Translations under genes and position numbers: made by a program
DNA from: a virus
Reading direction: 5' to 3' (one strand)
IMG/VR virus record: IMGVR_UViG_3300044856_000229
Span: 64,001 to 92,827 of that record
DNA length: 28,827 nt
Shown here: one piece after another, positions 5,126 through 14,581 of the stretch
Layout: each line of letters begins with the position of its first letter
Position numbering within the stretch: position 1 is the first letter of the stretch
The notes under the pieces: generated by a model
Database searches by the model: none
Seen by the model: the letters and a program-made list of their open reading frames with translations, nothing else
Told to the model about the DNA's origin: nothing

Positions 5126-5158
5126 TCTGGGGGAACTCTCAGAAAAATTTTCTGAGAG
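5126..5158. repeat. perfect 15-bp-arm palindrome GGAACTCTCAGAAAA-a-TTTTCTGAGAGTTCC spanning stop codon of NT5C paralog 1
   Basis: The arms are exact reverse complements. The left arm encodes the last residues (GTLRKF) and the TGA stop lies in the right arm. Possible terminator, RNase III site or operator. Confidence 0.6.
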
Positions 5159-5618
5159 TTCCAATAATGTCGTTTACATCAAAGCTGTTCTCGCCCCACT
5201 CTTCTCTATTACGTTTTTCATCATCAAAGAGCCAACCGTTACAATCAACAACTGTGCTTTTTGGTGTGCCATAGTTTACAATTTTAACCTCATCCCATTC
5301 AACACTAGGAAGATGTTTTTCGAGCCATGCAAGTTTTACGCTTGTTACTGCCGTGTTATAAGCTGTCGAACCATATTTGCTGAGCCAACTTACAATACCG
5401 ATTCTATAACCGTTTGCCTGTAATTTATGTAATACTCTTGCAAATACTGAGAAGTTAAACAGCGGTCTTGCTACTGCATAAGGTGTGGTATCCTCATTTT
5501 CCAGATAGTCCAACCAGTTTTCTACACCATAGAAGTTAGCAAGTGTGCCGTCCATGTCAAAGTAAATAGTTCCTTTTGTTTCCATCATTCCTTTAATTGT
5601 ATTCATCATAATCATCAA
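5139..5618 (-). CDS. HAD-superfamily 5'(3')-deoxyribonucleotidase (NT5C-like), paralog 1
   Basis: HAD motif I FDMDGTLANF. WLEKHLP...VKIVNYGTPKSTVV...GWLFDDE matches the NT5C signature W.EK.FG...IVLT.DK...D.LIDD. About 150 aa. The true start may be the internal ATG at 5588 (METKGTIYFDMDGT), by analogy with paralog 2. Confidence 0.7.
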   Translation of the reverse strand: MMIMMNTIKGMMETKGTIYFDMDGTLANFYGVENWLDYLENEDTTPYAVARPLFNFSVFARVLHKLQANGYRIGIVSWLSKYGSTAYNTAVTSVKLAWLEKHLPSVEWDEVKIVNYGTPKSTVVDCNGWLFDDEKRNREEWGENSFDVNDIIGTLRKFF

Positions 5619-9045: not shown

Positions 9046-9513
9046 TTACACATGATACTGTATTAACTCTTTAAGCACGTCCATCATAACCACAGCATCA
9101 ACACTTGCACCTTGCCACTCTTCTCTATTCCTTGCTTCATCATCGAATAGTATTCCACCACAAGGCACTGCCGCACGTTTATTCTGTCCATACTCTGTTA
9201 CAATAATCTCATTCCAATTAACACTAGGAAGATGCTTCTTTAACCATTTCCTTTTGGCTTCTTCTATTGCTTGCACATAGTCAAGTGTTGCGTCCTTACT
9301 TGCCCATGAGATAACACCTAACTTATAACCTCTTCTCTGTAGTGCATTAATACGCCTTGCAAATAGACTCATAGATACAAGCGGTCTTGCTATCTCATAA
9401 GGCACTATACTACCATGCACCAGATAGTCAAGCCAACCTTCTACACTGTAAAGGTCTGCAATAGTTCCATCTAAATCGAACCACAACCATTTATTATCTA
9501 ACATACTAATCAC
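9046..9513 (-). CDS. HAD-superfamily 5'(3')-deoxyribonucleotidase (NT5C-like), paralog 2
   Basis: FDLDGTIADL (HAD motif I) and WLKKHLP...IIVTEYGQNKRAAV...GILFDDE. About 45% identical to paralog 1 at 5139..5618. The ORF-track start at 9513 is GTG. The ATG at 9504 (MLDNKWLWFDLDGT) is likely the real start. Confidence 0.7.
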   Translation of the reverse strand: MISMLDNKWLWFDLDGTIADLYSVEGWLDYLVHGSIVPYEIARPLVSMSLFARRINALQRRGYKLGVISWASKDATLDYVQAIEEAKRKWLKKHLPSVNWNEIIVTEYGQNKRAAVPCGGILFDDEARNREEWQGASVDAVVMMDVLKELIQYHV

Positions 9514-9545
9514 TCTTTCTTTCTTTTATCTTTATCTTTATATTT

Positions 9546-9574
9546 ATTATAACACCTTTGTGCTTGCTTGTCAA
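9546..9574 (-). promoter_or_regulatory. sigmaA-type promoter, leftward (TTGACA-17-TATAAT)
   Basis: Minus strand reads TTGACA (9574..9569), spacer, then TATAAT (9551..9546). Paralogous to the promoter at 3012-3040. Confidence 0.7.
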
Positions 9575-9635
9575 GACCTTTCTTTGTGTCTTTGTCTTGC
9601 CTCTTGGCTCAAGGGTTAGCCTGAGCTAACCCATC

Positions 9636-9755
9636 CTATGCCAGATAAGTCTCGAGGATAGAGCCACCTACTCTCTTGGCAGTTAGTTCAGCCAAACTTT
9701 TGCTACTTGTCAATAAAACGAATTTTCCCTCTCTATCAATAACCTCATACTTCAT
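9636..9755 (-). CDS. small protein, 39 aa (MKYEVIDREGKFVLLTSSKSLAELTAKRVGGSILETYLA)
   Basis: Unannotated ORF. RBS AAAGAGAGGAAcaaaaacATG. Followed by hairpin GGGTTAGCtcagGCTAACCC. Promoter at 9792-9820. Confidence 0.45.
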   Translation of the reverse strand: MKYEVIDREGKFVLLTSSKSLAELTAKRVGGSILETYLA

Positions 9756-9791
9756 GTTTTTGTTCCTCTCTTTCTCTCTTTCTTTATACAT

Positions 9792-9820
9792 AGTATAGCA
9801 TACAAGTAGCTACTTGTCAA
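9792..9820 (-). promoter_or_regulatory. sigmaA-type promoter, leftward (TTGACA-17-TATACT)
   Basis: Minus strand reads TTGACA (9820..9815), spacer, then TATACT (9797..9792). Confidence 0.65.
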
Positions 9821-9919
9821 GAGGTTTTTATAAATTTTCTTTGTTAATTTTTTAACAAGCGAACTACTGGGAATCGCAGTTTTCGTCACCAACTTACGCT
9901 CCATGAGAGCACCAAATCT

Positions 9920-9948
9920 ATTATACCACAGATGTGCGGTGATGTCAA
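9920..9948 (-). promoter_or_regulatory. leftward extended -10 promoter (TTGACA-17-TGgTATAAT), tandem upstream of 9792-9820
   Basis: Minus strand reads cATTGACAtcaccgcacatctgTGGTATAATag. Resembles the rightward promoters through CTGTGGTATAAT. Confidence 0.55.
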
Positions 9949-9957
9949 TGGGTAACA

Positions 9958-10056
9958 TTGCACAAAGATTGACTACTGATTTTGTGCAATGTGCTGAAAA
10001 TTATTTTTGTGCAAAGTGACGAAATTTGGGAAAAAAATTAAAATATTTTTGTGCAA
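9958..10056. promoter_or_regulatory. array of TTTTGTGCAA motifs (direct copies at 9980-9989, 10005-10014, 10047-10056; inverted copy at 9958-9967) upstream of rightward promoter
   Basis: Exact 10-mer repeats. The last copy is positioned GTGCA-N9-TTGACA, as at the three other rightward promoters. Candidate activator/repressor site or UP-element array. Confidence 0.45.
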
Positions 10057-10064
10057 CTTTTTGC

Positions 10065-10094
10065 TTGACAAATTGTTGTGTCTCGTGTTATAAT
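10065..10094 (+). promoter_or_regulatory. rightward extended -10 promoter (TTGACA-18-TGtTATAAT)
   Basis: TTGACA at 10065-10070 and TATAAT at 10089-10094, with TG at -15/-14. Confidence 0.55.
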
Positions 10095-10100
10095 GGAAAT

Positions 10101-10170
10101 TCGGGCCTGCGCTTGCGTCTACGGCCCGAGGATTTGACGAGAGCGTCATTACTTTTTATGTATTTTTCCC
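10101..10170 (+). ncRNA. candidate short non-coding RNA (GC-rich hairpin GGGCC-15nt-GGCCC, then GACGagaGCGTC + U-tract)
   Basis: No ORF. Structured 5' end followed by a U-rich tail. Lies in the 360-bp non-coding gap 9959-10320. Confidence 0.25.
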
Positions 10171-10320
10171 AGATAAATCTGAAACAAAAGTGAACTTGAG
10201 CCTTGCTATTGGGGGGTATATTTCGTGAAAAAATTTTTTTGATTTTTGAAAATCGTTTTGCTCTGGACAAAACTCTTCTCAAACCCATTTTGAAATTCGA
10301 GTTACGAATAATTTCAGTAT

Positions 10321-10629
10321 TTAATCAAGATTCAAATCTTCTTCTGCAGGGCTTGGATTAGTTGCCCCTTCAATTTGCTTTAAATCCTCAACGTCCTTAT
10401 CCAATTCATCAATATGATCTTTAACCCAATTAGTCAGCTTCAAATATCCAGCATCATTAATTTCAGTAGAGAATCCTCTGAAATCAGTTCGTGCAGGAAA
10501 TCCCGCAATAACATTACCATCATCATCTTGTTCTACAAGTAAACACCAACCAAAAGCATGTAAAAATAAATTAGCATACCACAGTAATCCGCTATCTTTA
10601 AATTCTTTCCAATCTTTAATTTCTATCAT
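10321..10629 (-). CDS. hypothetical acidic protein
   Basis: 102-aa ORF. Strong RBS AAAGGAGataactATG. Preceded by terminator 10648-10693 with no own consensus promoter. Confidence 0.7.
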   Translation of the reverse strand: MIEIKDWKEFKDSGLLWYANLFLHAFGWCLLVEQDDDGNVIAGFPARTDFRGFSTEINDAGYLKLTNWVKDHIDELDKDVEDLKQIEGATNPSPAEEDLNLD

Positions 10630-10647
10630 AGTTATCTCCTTTATAGG

Positions 10648-10693
10648 AAAAGGAGAAACGCATTTTGCATCTCTCCTTTTCGTTTTATTTTTT
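10648..10693. terminator. terminator hairpin AAAAGGAGA-15nt-TCTCCTTTT followed by T-run (plus strand); likely leaky for leftward transcription
   Basis: 9-bp stem with nested GCAttttGC in the loop, then CGTTTTATTTTTT. Confidence 0.5.
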
Positions 10694-10780
10694 ATATATA
10701 GTTAAAACATTTCCTTCGTTTCCGTTATCAGTAATTTCTTAATAAAATTAATACAGCGAGTGGAACAATAATTCCAACAA

Positions 10781-10996
10781 TCATTCTTTATTCTCCTTTA
10801 TTTCAAACCCCAATAATAATTTAAACATTTTTCTTTGTAACCAATTAAATCTTTTATTACAAGGTAAAATAAAAAACTCTTTTCCATCATCATCTACCAA
10901 TACAATTTTATATGGTGCGGGTTTAGGCTGCAATAAATTACAACTGTATGACGAATTCAGTGTCTCCTGCGGATTTACCTTTACTTCTTTTTGCAT
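10781..10996 (-). CDS. hypothetical protein (about 71 aa)
   Basis: The ORF-track start at 11002 is TTG. The ATG at 10996 is the first ATG. Overlaps the 3' end of candidate ORF 10938..11096 in another frame. Its stop overlaps ATGA with the 18-aa hydrophobic micro-ORF 10728..10784 (MIVGIIVPLAVLILLRNY, RBS GGAGAAtaaagaATG). Confidence 0.5.
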   Translation of the reverse strand: MQKEVKVNPQETLNSSYSCNLLQPKPAPYKIVLVDDDGKEFFILPCNKRFNWLQRKMFKLLLGFEIKENKE

Positions 10997-11096
10997 CCTC
11001 AATCTCTTTCTTCATCTGATAATCAAGTTTTGCCATGCGACTTCTCATAATCTGAAACTCTGTTCTTTTTGCTCTTTTACTCTTATTTCTTCCCAT
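10938..11096 (-). CDS. candidate Lys/Arg-rich small protein, 52 aa
   Basis: RBS AAGGAGaatagaaagaATG. A-rich frame in an AT-rich genome, and it overlaps 10781..10996, so it is uncertain. Confidence 0.3.
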   Translation of the reverse strand: MGRNKSKRAKRTEFQIMRSRMAKLDYQMKKEIEDAKRSKGKSAGDTEFVIQL

Positions 11097-11334
11097 TCTT
11101 TCTATTCTCCTTAATCTTTTTTAATTCATTTTCAATTGATTCTAAAAGTCTAATTGCGGATTCATCATCCAAAAATTCACTAACATTTATTGTATTTGGA
11201 ATTACAATAACATGTTTATCAGAAAACACTTCTGAAACATGTTTAAATACTCCATAAACTTCATCAATACTATTTTCACCAAGAGTATAAGTAATAATTA
11301 CATAATCTCTTTTTTCCTCTGTTTTAATTTTCAT
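11083..11334 (-). CDS. hypothetical protein
   Basis: 83-aa ORF. Start overlaps the stop of 11331..11630 (ATGA), so the two are translationally coupled. Confidence 0.65.
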   Translation of the reverse strand: MKIKTEEKRDYVIITYTLGENSIDEVYGVFKHVSEVFSDKHVIVIPNTINVSEFLDDESAIRLLESIENELKKIKENRKNGKK

Positions 11335-11630
11335 CTTATAATTACCGTCCCATGTTTTCCTTCTCTTCTTAGCCTCTCCAAAACTGGATGGCGGGAATTT
11401 TTTTCATTCATAAATACAATAGCAAAATCAAGTTCTTTAATATAATCATTAAATGAGCCAAAGAAATATCTTTTGCCGGAGCCATTATTTTCTGCCCATT
11501 TATCTCCCAAAGAATTGGGAGAACACACTATATTAAATAAATATGTTCCCTTTATTTCAATAAGCTCATTTAATCTTTTATCCAAAAGATCATAATCATC
11601 AAGTGTGCCTCCAATTATTCCTACATTCAT
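11331..11630 (-). CDS. small Rossmann-like protein, possible SLOG/DUF2493-like (Gly-rich N-terminus VGIIGGT)
   Basis: 99-aa ORF. ATGA overlap with the stop of the Thg1-like gene. Glycine-rich loop near the N-terminus. Family assignment is tentative. Confidence 0.6.
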   Translation of the reverse strand: MNVGIIGGTLDDYDLLDKRLNELIEIKGTYLFNIVCSPNSLGDKWAENNGSGKRYFFGSFNDYIKELDFAIVFMNEKNSRHPVLERLRREGKHGTVIIR

Positions 11631-12484
11631 GCGATTGACTCAATAAAAACTAACTTATCAATATAATCTCTATCTGCCCCTTTGAAAATAGGAATTTCAT
11701 AATCTATTTTCCATTTGCGGCGAACAATTATTCTTTCACCAATTTGCTCTCCAAGATAAACATTTGGCTCTTTAATTGTTTCTTTTTCTTCTGTCTTAAT
11801 GCACGCGGTTCCTCGTTTACATGGAATTGTAAAAGTATTCCAATTAATTCCATACTGAACCATTAGCATATCTTGAATATCATTACAAGTTTTATCTTTA
11901 AGTTTAGCATGCGAGAAATGAGCTTGTCCTACCATCTGAATACTATTCCGCATTGCATCAAGCTGCCGCCAATAAATAAGGTTTGTTACTTCTTCTTTTG
12001 GAATATTAAAACATCTTGCGTCAAACATTGCTCCTTTTTCTGCGGCATTTACATATCTTTCAATAAGTCTTTTATTTTCCTCTATAAGAGGATCATAAGT
12101 TGAATTATATTTAATTATATTCTCAGAAAAATATTTATTAAAAGCCACTGTTGCCATAGAAGCTGATATAGAAGCCATTTTCTGGACCTCATAATTAAAC
12201 CAAGCCTCTGAAGTTAACTTTTGGTAATCAGTTAAAATCAAAGTAATTTCATCTGACTGAGTATATCCAAAAATACAACCCTGAATATTTTCACAAAGAT
12301 GCTTCATTGTTCTTTGCATTGTATCCATTAACACAGGGTCAAATGGTTTTTGAAAACCTCGTGTAAAAGTATGAAAAGCTTTTCCATCAATCCTAATAGC
12401 TACTGGCATGCGGCGAAGTAATTGCGTTTTTGCGGGATTTTCATAAAAATCTTTCATTCTTGCGGCAAGTTCACTATTATCCAT
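11627..12484 (-). CDS. Thg1-like protein (tRNA-His guanylyltransferase family, 3'-5' nucleotidyltransferase)
   Basis: Motifs match Thg1 in order: VAIRIDGKAFHTF (Thg1 VVVRLDGRNFHRF), KPFD, YTQSDEITL (Thg1 YGQSDEYSF), QKMASISAS and YWRQLDA (Thg1 SWRQADC). RBS AAGGAAGaaaaATG. Confidence 0.8.
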   Translation of the reverse strand: MDNSELAARMKDFYENPAKTQLLRRMPVAIRIDGKAFHTFTRGFQKPFDPVLMDTMQRTMKHLCENIQGCIFGYTQSDEITLILTDYQKLTSEAWFNYEVQKMASISASMATVAFNKYFSENIIKYNSTYDPLIEENKRLIERYVNAAEKGAMFDARCFNIPKEEVTNLIYWRQLDAMRNSIQMVGQAHFSHAKLKDKTCNDIQDMLMVQYGINWNTFTIPCKRGTACIKTEEKETIKEPNVYLGEQIGERIIVRRKWKIDYEIPIFKGADRDYIDKLVFIESIA

Positions 12485-12518
12485 TTTTCTTCCTTTTTTT
12501 ATTTATTTTATATATATA

Positions 12519-12848
12519 TTATAATTTAATTTTTAAATTTTGTCCATTCTGATCTTTTATTGAGATTTCTGTGCGGTTTTCAGTAAGATTTGTTTCTTTT
12601 AAGAACCAATGCCATACATGAGGTTCTTCAATTGTGGTTCCAATATATTGGGTATTTTCTAACACTTTTTCGGGAATCGGCTGTCCTGTTCCAATAGGAT
12701 TCACAAAGAAACTTCTAATAGGAGCTGCAGTATCAGTTAAAGCCCAAAGATAAGTGCGGCCATTCATTTCTTTTACATCAAGAAATTTAATAAGCGGTAA
12801 TTCAAGTACTCCAATATCATTTAAACAATATTTAAGAATTCTTTTCAT
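12519..12848 (-). CDS. hypothetical protein (109 aa)
   Basis: RBS AGAGGAtaaacttaATG. Overlaps the 3' end of the AbrB-like gene by 17 nt. Confidence 0.65.
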   Translation of the reverse strand: MKRILKYCLNDIGVLELPLIKFLDVKEMNGRTYLWALTDTAAPIRSFFVNPIGTGQPIPEKVLENTQYIGTTIEEPHVWHWFLKETNLTENRTEISIKDQNGQNLKIKL

Positions 12849-13098
12849 TAAGTTTATCCTCTAATTTTTCTGGAATTTCTGCGCCAATTTCTTCAAGAAT
12901 TGATTTTGCGGCTAAGAATTTTGGGTCTACTCCATCGGCAATAGATAAAGCAATATACATTTTACCATCTAAATCAAATGTAAAAAATTCAAGCTCTTCA
13001 TTATCTCGCATAAACATTCTATCTCTTAATCCTTTTGGAAGAGTAATTCTTCCCAATGAATCTAATCTTCTTCTTGCGTTTTCTGGTCTTAATATCAT
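12832..13098 (-). CDS. AbrB/SpoVT/MazE-fold DNA-binding protein
   Basis: N-terminal LDSLGRITLPKGLRDRMFM matches the swapped-hairpin AbrB-N motif (VDELGRVVIPIELRRTLGI). 88 aa. RBS AAGGAGataaaataATG. Confidence 0.7.
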   Translation of the reverse strand: MILRPENARRRLDSLGRITLPKGLRDRMFMRDNEELEFFTFDLDGKMYIALSIADGVDPKFLAAKSILEEIGAEIPEKLEDKLNEKNS

Positions 13099-13110
13099 TA
13101 TTTTATCTCC

Positions 13111-13347
13111 TTAATTAAATTTAATATTATTATCATCATCGCTACCATCCCAATTACTACCCATTAAAATATCTAATATCCATGTAGCAATATTAGAGAT
13201 GAAAAATGCGGGTGCTGTTATTAAAAATATTATGAGTACAATTAACATTTCTACCCAGCCTATTTGATACAGCGAATCCGCAGATTGTATAGCCAAAGAT
13301 AAAAACATAAGTAACCATAAAATATAAATAACTATTATTAAAGTCAT
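13111..13347 (-). CDS. small membrane protein (2 TM)
   Basis: 78-aa ORF. RBS AAAGAGGAtacaaatATG. First gene after promoter 13386-13414. Confidence 0.65.
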   Translation of the reverse strand: MTLIIVIYILWLLMFLSLAIQSADSLYQIGWVEMLIVLIIFLITAPAFFISNIATWILDILMGSNWDGSDDDNNIKFN

Positions 13348-13385
13348 ATTTGTATCCTCTTTATTTTTACCTTTAATTTACTAAT

Positions 13386-13414
13386 ATAATATCAAAAAAT
13401 TTTAATGTTGTCAA
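13386..13414 (-). promoter_or_regulatory. sigmaA-type promoter, leftward (TTGACA-17-TATTAT), divergent partner of 13420-13448
   Basis: Minus strand reads TTGACA (13414..13409). The two -35 boxes are back-to-back: TTGTCAAagaatTTGACT. Confidence 0.6.
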
Positions 13415-13419
13415 AGAAT

Positions 13420-13448
13420 TTGACTTTGTCCAAGATTTGCGATATAAT
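13420..13448 (+). promoter_or_regulatory. sigmaA-type promoter, rightward (TTGACT-17-TATAAT) for the morphogenesis arm
   Basis: TTGACT at 13420-13425, a 17-nt spacer, then TATAAT at 13443-13448. This is 24 nt upstream of the RBS GGAGGtaaactATG of gene 13472. Confidence 0.65.
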
Positions 13449-13471
13449 GTTTTTAATACTGGAGGTAAACT

Positions 13472-14581
13472 ATGATTAAATTAGACTATACTATACAAAC
13501 TCCAGAAGAAAGAAACGAACTAGTGAAAAAAATTTTAGAAGAAACTCCTGACCCTAGTGAGAGATATTTAGAAATTTTGGCTGACTACCTCGTTCTTTGT
13601 ATGGAGAAACAAGAGAAGAAGCAGAAACAAATTTTAACAGAAAATCGAATGACAACTGTTAATAAGAGAGAAACTTCTTATGAAGGTCTTGTTTCCCAAT
13701 TAGAAAATGGCGAAGATGGTATCTATAACCTAATAAATGAAAGTAAAACAACAATATTTCAACCAAAAGTGACAATAACAAAAAAAGATTTAGAAGAAAT
13801 ACCTTATTTAAGACAATTACGTGATGCTATCAATAGTTGGGAAATAAAACTTAAAAAAGCGCAAGGGCGCGATGCGTATATAATTAAAAAAGCATTGATT
13901 GAAATGCGTAAAGACCAATATGTAATAAAAAATGCTTACCGCAAGCCTATTATCTTTAATAAAATTAGTCGTTCTAATTTTGCGTCTAGATTGGTTGAAG
14001 ATTTTATATTAGATGAAAATAATTATATTGTTCCTAGTGGGGTTTCTTTATGTAGTCCTACAGTTTGTTCATTAATTCTTTGTAATTATTCGCAACTTAA
14101 AGAAGAGAGCTGGGGAAAATTTGAAGGTGATTTATGGTACCTTATGGAATCATTTGATAAAATATCTACAGACGCTTTAAAAGAATACCCATTATATGAA
14201 GAAATAGTAAAATGTAAAATAGATGGACTACAAAATATAGAAATACAGAAAATATTAAAAGAAAAGTATGATACAACTCATAGCTTAGAATATATTTCTA
14301 GCTTATGGAGGAAAAAGATTCCAAATCTTATTGCCTCAAAAGCAGAGGACGTAGAATTAAGTTGGTATTTTTTAAATACTGAAAAAGGTAAATATAAAAG
14401 ATGCAGTCGATGCGGGAAAATTAAACTTGCTCATAATAAATATTTTAGTAAAAATAAAACTAGCAAGGATGGTTGGTATTCCATTTGTAAAGAATGTAGA
14501 AATAAAAAAATAAGGACAAAAAGAAATAGACTTTCTTTATCCTTTTATAAAGGAGGTATAATTTATGGCAACAAATACTGA
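13472..14581 (+). CDS. hypothetical protein with C-terminal zinc ribbon (CSRC-x20-CKEC)
   Basis: 369-aa ORF. Basic tail. First gene of the rightward arm. Confidence 0.75.
   Translation: MIKLDYTIQTPEERNELVKKILEETPDPSERYLEILADYLVLCMEKQEKKQKQILTENRMTTVNKRETSYEGLVSQLENGEDGIYNLINESKTTIFQPKVTITKKDLEEIPYLRQLRDAINSWEIKLKKAQGRDAYIIKKALIEMRKDQYVIKNAYRKPIIFNKISRSNFASRLVEDFILDENNYIVPSGVSLCSPTVCSLILCNYSQLKEESWGKFEGDLWYLMESFDKISTDALKEYPLYEEIVKCKIDGLQNIEIQKILKEKYDTTHSLEYISSLWRKKIPNLIASKAEDVELSWYFLNTEKGKYKRCSRCGKIKLAHNKYFSKNKTSKDGWYSICKECRNKKIRTKRNRLSLSFYKGGIIYGNKY

Follow-up and report, generated by a model that had tools for sequence, protein, structure and literature searches.

The stretch of DNA analysed here, called the window below, comprises 28,827 nucleotides of a virus (IMG/VR record IMGVR_UViG_3300044856_000229, positions 64,001 to 92,827). 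It contains three overlapping genes on the minus strand, of which the first encodes a Thg1-like protein (TLP). This gene (11627-12484) has a product of 285 amino acids that belongs, by profile and alignment, to the 3'-5' nucleotidyltransferase family. It is followed by a gene for a 99-amino-acid protein (11331-11630), which its predicted structure and remote relatives point to as a minimal SLOG-fold protein, and by a gene for an 83-amino-acid orphan (11083-11334), predicted to be an alpha/beta protein with a long C-terminal helix. All three open reading frames (ORFs) were found as the original prediction for this locus had given them, tightly overlapping, and both junctions are 4-nucleotide ATGA stop/start overlaps: ...GCATGAATGTAGG... 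and ...GCATGAATG... between the 285- and 99-amino-acid genes, and ...AGATGAAAATT... and ...AGATGAAA... between the 99- and 83-amino-acid genes.

The ATG of the 285-amino-acid gene is preceded by a good ribosome-binding site (AAAGGAAG); for the 99-amino-acid gene, its own Shine-Dalgarno sequence is not obvious. Because of this and the ATGA overlap, translational coupling is plausible, and the overlaps probably couple translation. Short overlaps of adjacent genes are common across the whole window.

Sequence profiles leave no reasonable doubt that the 285-amino-acid protein belongs to the Thg1 family. It matched Pfam PF04446 (Thg1) with an E value of 2.6e-31 and 108.7 bits against a cut-off of 29.2, and the match of residues 9-162 covered profile positions 3-130 of 130, i.e. 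the entire catalytic (palm) domain. PHROG 4717 'tRNA-His guanylyltransferase' was matched with E=1.5e-84. The best match among solved structures was the TLP of Bacillus thuringiensis (BtTLP, PDB 4kgk, E=4.8e-54), followed by the archaeal TLP 5axk (E=3e-11) and by human and yeast-type/fungal Thg1 (about 1e-7). Since BtTLP was matched at 4.8e-54 and eukaryotic Thg1 at about 1e-7, the protein is by sequence comparison a bacterial-type TLP, not one of the eukaryotic tRNA-His-specific type. The family had first been proposed from five Thg1/TLP motifs, and all five are present in the order given: RIDGKAFHTF (residues 31-40), KPFD (46-49), YTQSDE (74-79), ASISAS (104-109) and WRQLD (172-176). The Pfam search bears this assignment out, and PHROG and 4kgk agree with it.

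Enzymes of the Thg1/TLP family have three conserved carboxylates, two of which bind metal ions (PMC3701042). Through HMMER alignments with 3otb and 4kgk, we found that D33, D78 and E79 align with D29, D76 and E77 of human THG1 and with D30, D75 and E76 of BtTLP; the catalytic acidic residues, on which the family proposal had been made to depend, are therefore all present. Residues K46, R31, R157 and E15 correspond in the alignment to K43, R28, R131 and E12 of BtTLP, the importance of which was shown by mutagenesis or structure (PMC3701042), and S77 is also conserved. The lysine and serine have roles in the activation step, and the arginines and glutamate in binding of the nucleoside triphosphate (PMC3701042). 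By alignment, the known catalytic residues are thus all intact (E15, R31, D33, K46, S77, D78, E79 and R157).

The C-terminal part scored 21.4 bits with Pfam Thg1C, under the cut-off of 26.3, and residues 152-282 aligned to BtTLP 126-240 with E=1.8e-19. Like BtTLP (PDB 4KGK/4KGM), to which it aligns over both domains with identical catalytic residues, the window protein has the TLP-type WRQxDAxxNSI motif. Unlike BtTLP, it is phage-encoded and 40 amino acids longer, with two insertions at about residues 122-151 and 232-250.

The original prediction had known of no Thg1 reported in a phage early region; that a phage Thg1 would be new is contradicted by PHROG 4717, by the GenBank phage records and by two publications. 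A Thg1 homologue was found in 164 of 50,697 GenBank phage records, with hosts including Bacillus, Prevotella, Caulobacter, Mycobacterium and Fusobacterium, and most of them are annotated as tRNA-His guanylyltransferase. At least 310 viral stretches in IMG/VR encode a relative, and the 80 closest IMG/VR Thg1 loci are those on which the neighbourhood counts below were made. Pseudomonas phage 201phi2-1 was already among the organisms of a family analysis in 2010, where a caudovirus was called a phage in a response to a reviewer (PMC2904730), and a jumbo-phage survey of 2021 placed Thg1 under phage RNA repair (PMC7824862). Experimental work on a phage TLP, whether biochemical or genetic, was not found in the literature searched. 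The phage Thg1 is thus a catalogued kind of gene, to which the window adds one more intact example, out of a large gut-phage clade, and no new principle. Members of PHROG 4717 such as Fusobacterium phage Fnu1 gp147, Bacillus phage G gp378 and Bacillus phage Goe8 gp149, all from large virulent phages, belong to the same family and share 40-46% identity with the window protein over at least 95% of the length; these phages differ in having no homologues of the 99- or 83-amino-acid proteins and in the gene neighbourhoods.

The 99-amino-acid protein itself gave no Pfam match at E<=1 and none in PHROG, NCBIfam or PADLOC. No tblastn match was detected in the 50,697 GenBank phage records even at E<=1, and megablast of window positions 10000-14000 against the same collection also gave no match. 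A word-based search retrieved four close relatives, and an exhaustive profile search 49 relatives of about 100 amino acids, which share the motifs YLF..CG...SLG..WA..NG.P, ADY and GKHG. Comparison of this family profile with PDB sequences gave noise only, namely de novo designed Rossmann proteins at E>=0.03. Of 47 family sequences from these two relative searches that were aligned, five matched PF10686 (YAcAr, formerly DUF2493, a SLOG family) with a best E of 6.4e-5, and other families were matched by at most two sequences each.

The AlphaFold model of this protein has five beta-alpha units and a predicted local distance difference test (pLDDT) score of 85.3, and the predicted fold is a Rossmannoid SLOG in which a Gly-rich loop follows strand 1. 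Among viral proteins, it matches DUF2493/YspA SLOG proteins best, one of them of the mycobacteriophage D29 gp61-type. D68, K92 and H93 are its conserved polar residues. The model and the remote relatives support the reading of the protein as a minimal stand-alone SLOG domain of the YAcAr/DUF2493 and YpsA type; the Rossmann/SLOG-like character proposed for it earlier has found support in the same evidence, without a direct profile match. Its YAcAr/DUF2493 (PF10686) kin include the D29 gp61-type proteins, the DUF2493 protein of Vibrio phage Vp_R1 and YpsA of B. subtilis (2NX2), from which it differs in being below Pfam detection, among the shortest, and a member of a distinct sub-family with a C-terminal GKHG. 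Proteins of this type are a common class of small phage proteins and are thought to bind nucleotides or nucleotide-derived ligands. YAcAr domains have been noted in phages before, and SLOG domains are predicted sensors of nucleotides or NAD derivatives (PMC7824862).

The 83-amino-acid protein is an orphan. Its homologues form 24 protein clusters, all at least 72% identical except the two weakest, and tblastn against GenBank phages gave no match even at E<=1. The predicted model (pLDDT 82.5) returned no informative match in the fold search. Residues 7-78 weakly matched Csx1 (PADLOC, E=0.0012) and Csx14 (TIGR03642, E=0.0011, 19 bits against a cut-off of 90), a relationship that the fold search did not confirm.

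Whether the three genes form a functional unit was judged from their neighbourhoods in related viruses. Within the lineage of the window, the trio with the same overlaps is kept in about ten contigs (L003-L006 and L094-L099). Across the 80 loci, the 99-amino-acid family lies within 6 kb of Thg1 in three, and those three are near-identical relatives of the window; sub-alignments of the family, used as the locus query, gave three loci only. The related phage L001, whose sigma-like protein is 89% identical, carries an intact 99-amino-acid gene (67% identical, with the family-invariant residues all kept) and neither Thg1 nor the 83-amino-acid gene. L002 has the 99-amino-acid gene adjoining an interrupted Thg1 that is without the C-terminal segment, and has no 83-amino-acid gene. 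Thg1 is present and the 99-amino-acid gene absent in L100, and no Thg1 lies near the remote members of the 99-amino-acid family in L087 and L091-L093. The contigs retrieved for remote members were mostly of less than 2 kb, and their context is uninformative.

In related loci, the genes that immediately follow Thg1 encode 69 distinct proteins, of which 40 were scanned, namely two copies of the 99-amino-acid protein and 38 others. These 38 belong to unrelated families, including LemA, isochorismatase, RlaP, ThyX and SprT-like proteins, and many are without a match; no SLOG was detected among them.

Comparison of the window with L006 and L094-L098 showed Thg1 64-70% identical and the 99-amino-acid protein 94-96%, with the flanking DUF7352 and sigma-like proteins within 86-97%. 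From the difference between 64-70% and 94-96% identity, the Thg1 and 99-amino-acid genes have separate histories. Thg1 alleles seem to be replaced particularly often at this locus, possibly driven by a homing endonuclease.

The adjacency is a feature of one phage lineage and not a conserved Thg1-SLOG module, which was rejected on the three loci in 80 of the neighbourhood survey and on the loci where the genes occur apart (L001, L100, L087 and L091-L093). Of the tight three-gene unit originally described, the ATGA overlaps and the plausible coupling stand; the functional module, with the 99-amino-acid gene at three of 80 Thg1 loci, does not. The simplest reading of the overlaps is ordinary tight packing of phage genes, and the three proteins most likely act independently.

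On the whole, we consider it likely that the TLP repairs or matures tRNA 5' ends in infection and that its SLOG and 83-amino-acid neighbours act independently of it. By homology to BtTLP, the enzyme would use ATP or GTP to activate the 5' end of an RNA, and would then add nucleotides in the 3'-5' direction on a Watson-Crick template, restoring the 5' strand of the tRNA acceptor stem. Bacterial TLPs are known to repair 5'-truncated tRNAs of many kinds by such templated addition and are not specific for tRNA-His (PMC3701042). Probably expressed early in infection, the window TLP would most likely repair or mature tRNA 5' ends, for example after damage by a host nuclease, or finish phage or host tRNAs such as tRNA-His; both substrate and biological role are inferred.

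Neighbouring genes in relatives give modest backing to a role in RNA repair. RlaP (Pfam PF10127, 'RNA repair pathway DNA polymerase beta family') lies within 6 kb downstream of Thg1 in five of the 80 viral loci (L016, L040, L059, L066 and L080), directly adjoining it in L066 and L080, and in Bacillus phage Goe8 RtcB lies 3 kb from Thg1. A likeness to T4 Pnk/Rnl1 countering PrrC, drawn by the original prediction and by PMC7824862, is that a phage enzyme would restore tRNAs damaged in infection. The T4 system, however, works by end healing and ligation, and a TLP by templated 3'-5' addition at the 5' end; the T4-type pair is a kinase/phosphatase with an RNA ligase, neither of which was found in the 27 window ORFs scanned. 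For the widespread phage Thg1 genes in general, the likely roles are to repair tRNAs damaged by nucleases or to mature unusual tRNAs of the phage.

Several points weigh against the proposed repair role with independent neighbours. ARAGORN found no tRNA gene in the window, and the 27 window ORFs compared with PHROGs included no recognisable RNA ligase, polynucleotide kinase or CCA-adding enzyme. The substrate of the TLP is extrapolated from a bacterial homologue, and the SLOG label of its neighbour comes from a predicted structure and remote relatives, not from a direct profile match. There may also be a lineage-specific functional link, considering that the trio is intact in about ten contigs and that the 99-amino-acid gene is without an obvious ribosome-binding site.

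Among the alternatives, the TLP could be a dedicated tRNA-His maturation enzyme, for phage or host tRNA, that adds the -1 nucleotide for histidylation and does no general repair. The family was named after the tRNA-His reaction, most phage annotations carry that name, and in L017 a tRNA-His gene lies 4.4 kb upstream of Thg1; its -1 base is T, not G, and is drawn paired with A73. We regard this as rather unlikely, since bacterial-type TLPs act on diverse 5'-truncated tRNAs in preference to adding G-1 (PMC3701042), and since tRNA genes are absent from the window and occur in just three of 60 related Thg1 loci.

The tRNA genes of L017, whose Thg1 is 62% identical to that of the window, were observed at 1481-1630, where tRNA-His abuts tRNA-Pro with zero spacer. 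ARAGORN draws the tRNA-His with an 8-bp acceptor stem containing an extra pair U(-1):A73. The usual pair in bacterial tRNA-His is G(-1):C73, and the L017 pair may be relevant to the substrates of phage Thg1.

An alternative that we hold to be improbable is the original prediction of one module for tRNA 5'-end repair or counter-defence, made up of Thg1, SLOG and the 83-amino-acid protein, with the small proteins as accessory subunits or regulators. Both ATGA junctions, the missing clear ribosome-binding site of the 99-amino-acid gene and the intact trio in L003-L006 and L094-L099 speak for such a module, and a nucleotide-centred SLOG would suit a nucleotidyltransferase partner (PMC7824862). However, characterised TLPs need no accessory proteins (PMC3701042), and the 99-amino-acid gene was found in no GenBank phage and at just three of the 80 Thg1 loci surveyed. 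It is present without Thg1 in L001, L002 has it beside a broken Thg1 and without the 83-amino-acid gene, and its remote relatives are not near Thg1. The unequal identities among relatives (64-70% for Thg1, 94-96% for the 99-amino-acid protein) also indicate different histories.

A narrower form, a module specific to this lineage in which an anti-defence TLP rebuilds tRNA 5' ends cut by a host nuclease together with a coupled SLOG (and perhaps 83-amino-acid) accessory, is in our judgement very unlikely. If true, the accessory might, for example, sense or sequester a nucleotide signal or feed nucleotides to the TLP, and the arrangement would be a previously undescribed phage module for tRNA 5'-end repair.

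That the SLOG protein, possibly with the 83-amino-acid protein, serves as a decoy or sponge for signalling nucleotides of host immunity, unrelated to the TLP function, is highly doubtful: a stand-alone minimal SLOG with conserved D68, K92 and H93 in a probable early operon, from a class of predicted nucleotide or NAD-derivative sensors (PMC7824862), and the weak match of the 83-amino-acid protein to CRISPR-associated Csx1/Csx14 (E about 1e-3) speak for it, but these scores are far under the cut-off (19 bits against 90), the 83-amino-acid fold search gave no match resembling CARF proteins, and demonstrated sponge activity of YAcAr-type phage proteins was not found. The Csx1 and Csx14 models are of the CARF type.

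Outside the window, the Thg1 genes of the sister phages L002 and L096-L100 were found to be interrupted at about codon 25 by a LAGLIDADG homing-endonuclease gene. The interrupted genes lie at 1565-3708 in L096, 1231-3023 in L002 and 2501-4437 in L100, and such genes are also present in L098 and L099. The window Thg1 gene is uninterrupted, and the uninterrupted allele has the sequence ...ATCCGCATTGATGGAAAAGC.... In the three alleles examined (L096, L098 and L099), a remnant of the original Thg1 5' end is located upstream of the endonuclease gene, and a second, diverged 5' segment downstream of it, which has its own AAAGGAG ribosome-binding site and ends with CG(C/T) CTT TGA. After CTT TGA, Thg1 resumes at the catalytic Asp codon, now in the +1 frame. 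Viral contigs were also scanned for the exact pattern of the second 5' segment, with no match.

The CTT TGA is conserved in four lineages (alleles L096, L098, L100 and L002, as CGY-CTT-TGA) despite differing neighbouring codons. The heptamer is known from bacterial release factor 2 as its site of programmed +1 frameshifting. The CTT-TGA is a candidate programmed frameshift linked to a mobile endonuclease cassette, which might keep Thg1 functional while the endonuclease target is destroyed; another reading is an inherited lesion of the selfish cassette. A group I intron in the interrupted Thg1 was rejected, as an Rfam E-value scan of L096 1400-3200 was empty. The second translated 5' segment with its own ribosome-binding site favours a free-standing endonuclease cassette over an intron. 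The endonuclease and +1 frameshift arrangement in these sister alleles is a more rewarding lead than the gene of the window itself.

Families of portal, terminase-like and virion proteins are encoded on the plus strand from 13472 rightwards, which marks the window as phage DNA; leftwards of this position, numerous small genes lie on the minus strand, most of which belong to no known family. The GC skew switches sign at about 13-14 kb, where the leftward and rightward genes diverge. Homologues of this block, 87-100% identical to the window proteins, are found in IMG/VR contigs of 150 and 178 kb, of which the 150-kb IMGVR_UViG_3300045988_131786 is the closest. The window is part of a gut phage of about 150 kb. 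Among named phages, the human-gut phage Phass-1 has the portal closest to that of the window; Enterococcus phages of about 140 kb come next, at a greater distance. RNA families were not detected in the window at the Rfam gathering thresholds.

The operon upstream of Thg1 on the minus strand (12519-13347) starts with a 78-amino-acid hydrophobic protein (13111-13347), followed by an 88-amino-acid AbrB/MazE-like protein (12832-13098) and a 109-amino-acid DUF7352 protein (12519-12848), and this gene order is syntenic in related contigs. Strong sigma-70-like promoter matches in both directions are located in the intergenic region 13348-13471. The match at 13386-13414 on the minus strand (TTGACA-17-TATTAT, extended TG, 11/12) likely starts the leftward operon containing the three genes, given the promoter match itself, the gene layout and the reversal of GC skew at about 13-14 kb. 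From the divergent promoters, the strand layout and the GC skew, the Thg1, 99- and 83-amino-acid genes belong to a leftward and probably early operon. Just upstream of the Thg1 start, a second sigma-70-like match (12518-12546, minus strand, TGGACA-17-TATAAT, 11/12) is a possible internal promoter; it is weak evidence, considering that 19 promoter-like sites were found in the region and 20.2 were expected from shuffled sequence.

The first rightward gene (13472-14581, plus strand) encodes a 369-amino-acid protein that matches the phage 'sigma factor' family phrog_5767 with E=4.9e-48, and its C-terminal 50 residues also match families labelled HNH endonuclease or endonuclease VII.

Two minus-strand ORFs in the leftward arm, 5139-5618 and 9046-9513, each match phrog_2643, a phage 5'-3' deoxyribonucleotidase, with E of about 1e-10 to 1e-11, and may be paralogues.

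Window positions 9520-10100 contain no ORF of 70 amino acids or more and no RNA family detected by Rfam, and the G+C content is raised to 0.38. This segment has perfect 12/12 matches to the sigma-70 consensus at 9574-9546 (minus strand), 9948-9920 (minus strand) and 10065-10094 (plus strand), and one more promoter match of 11/12.

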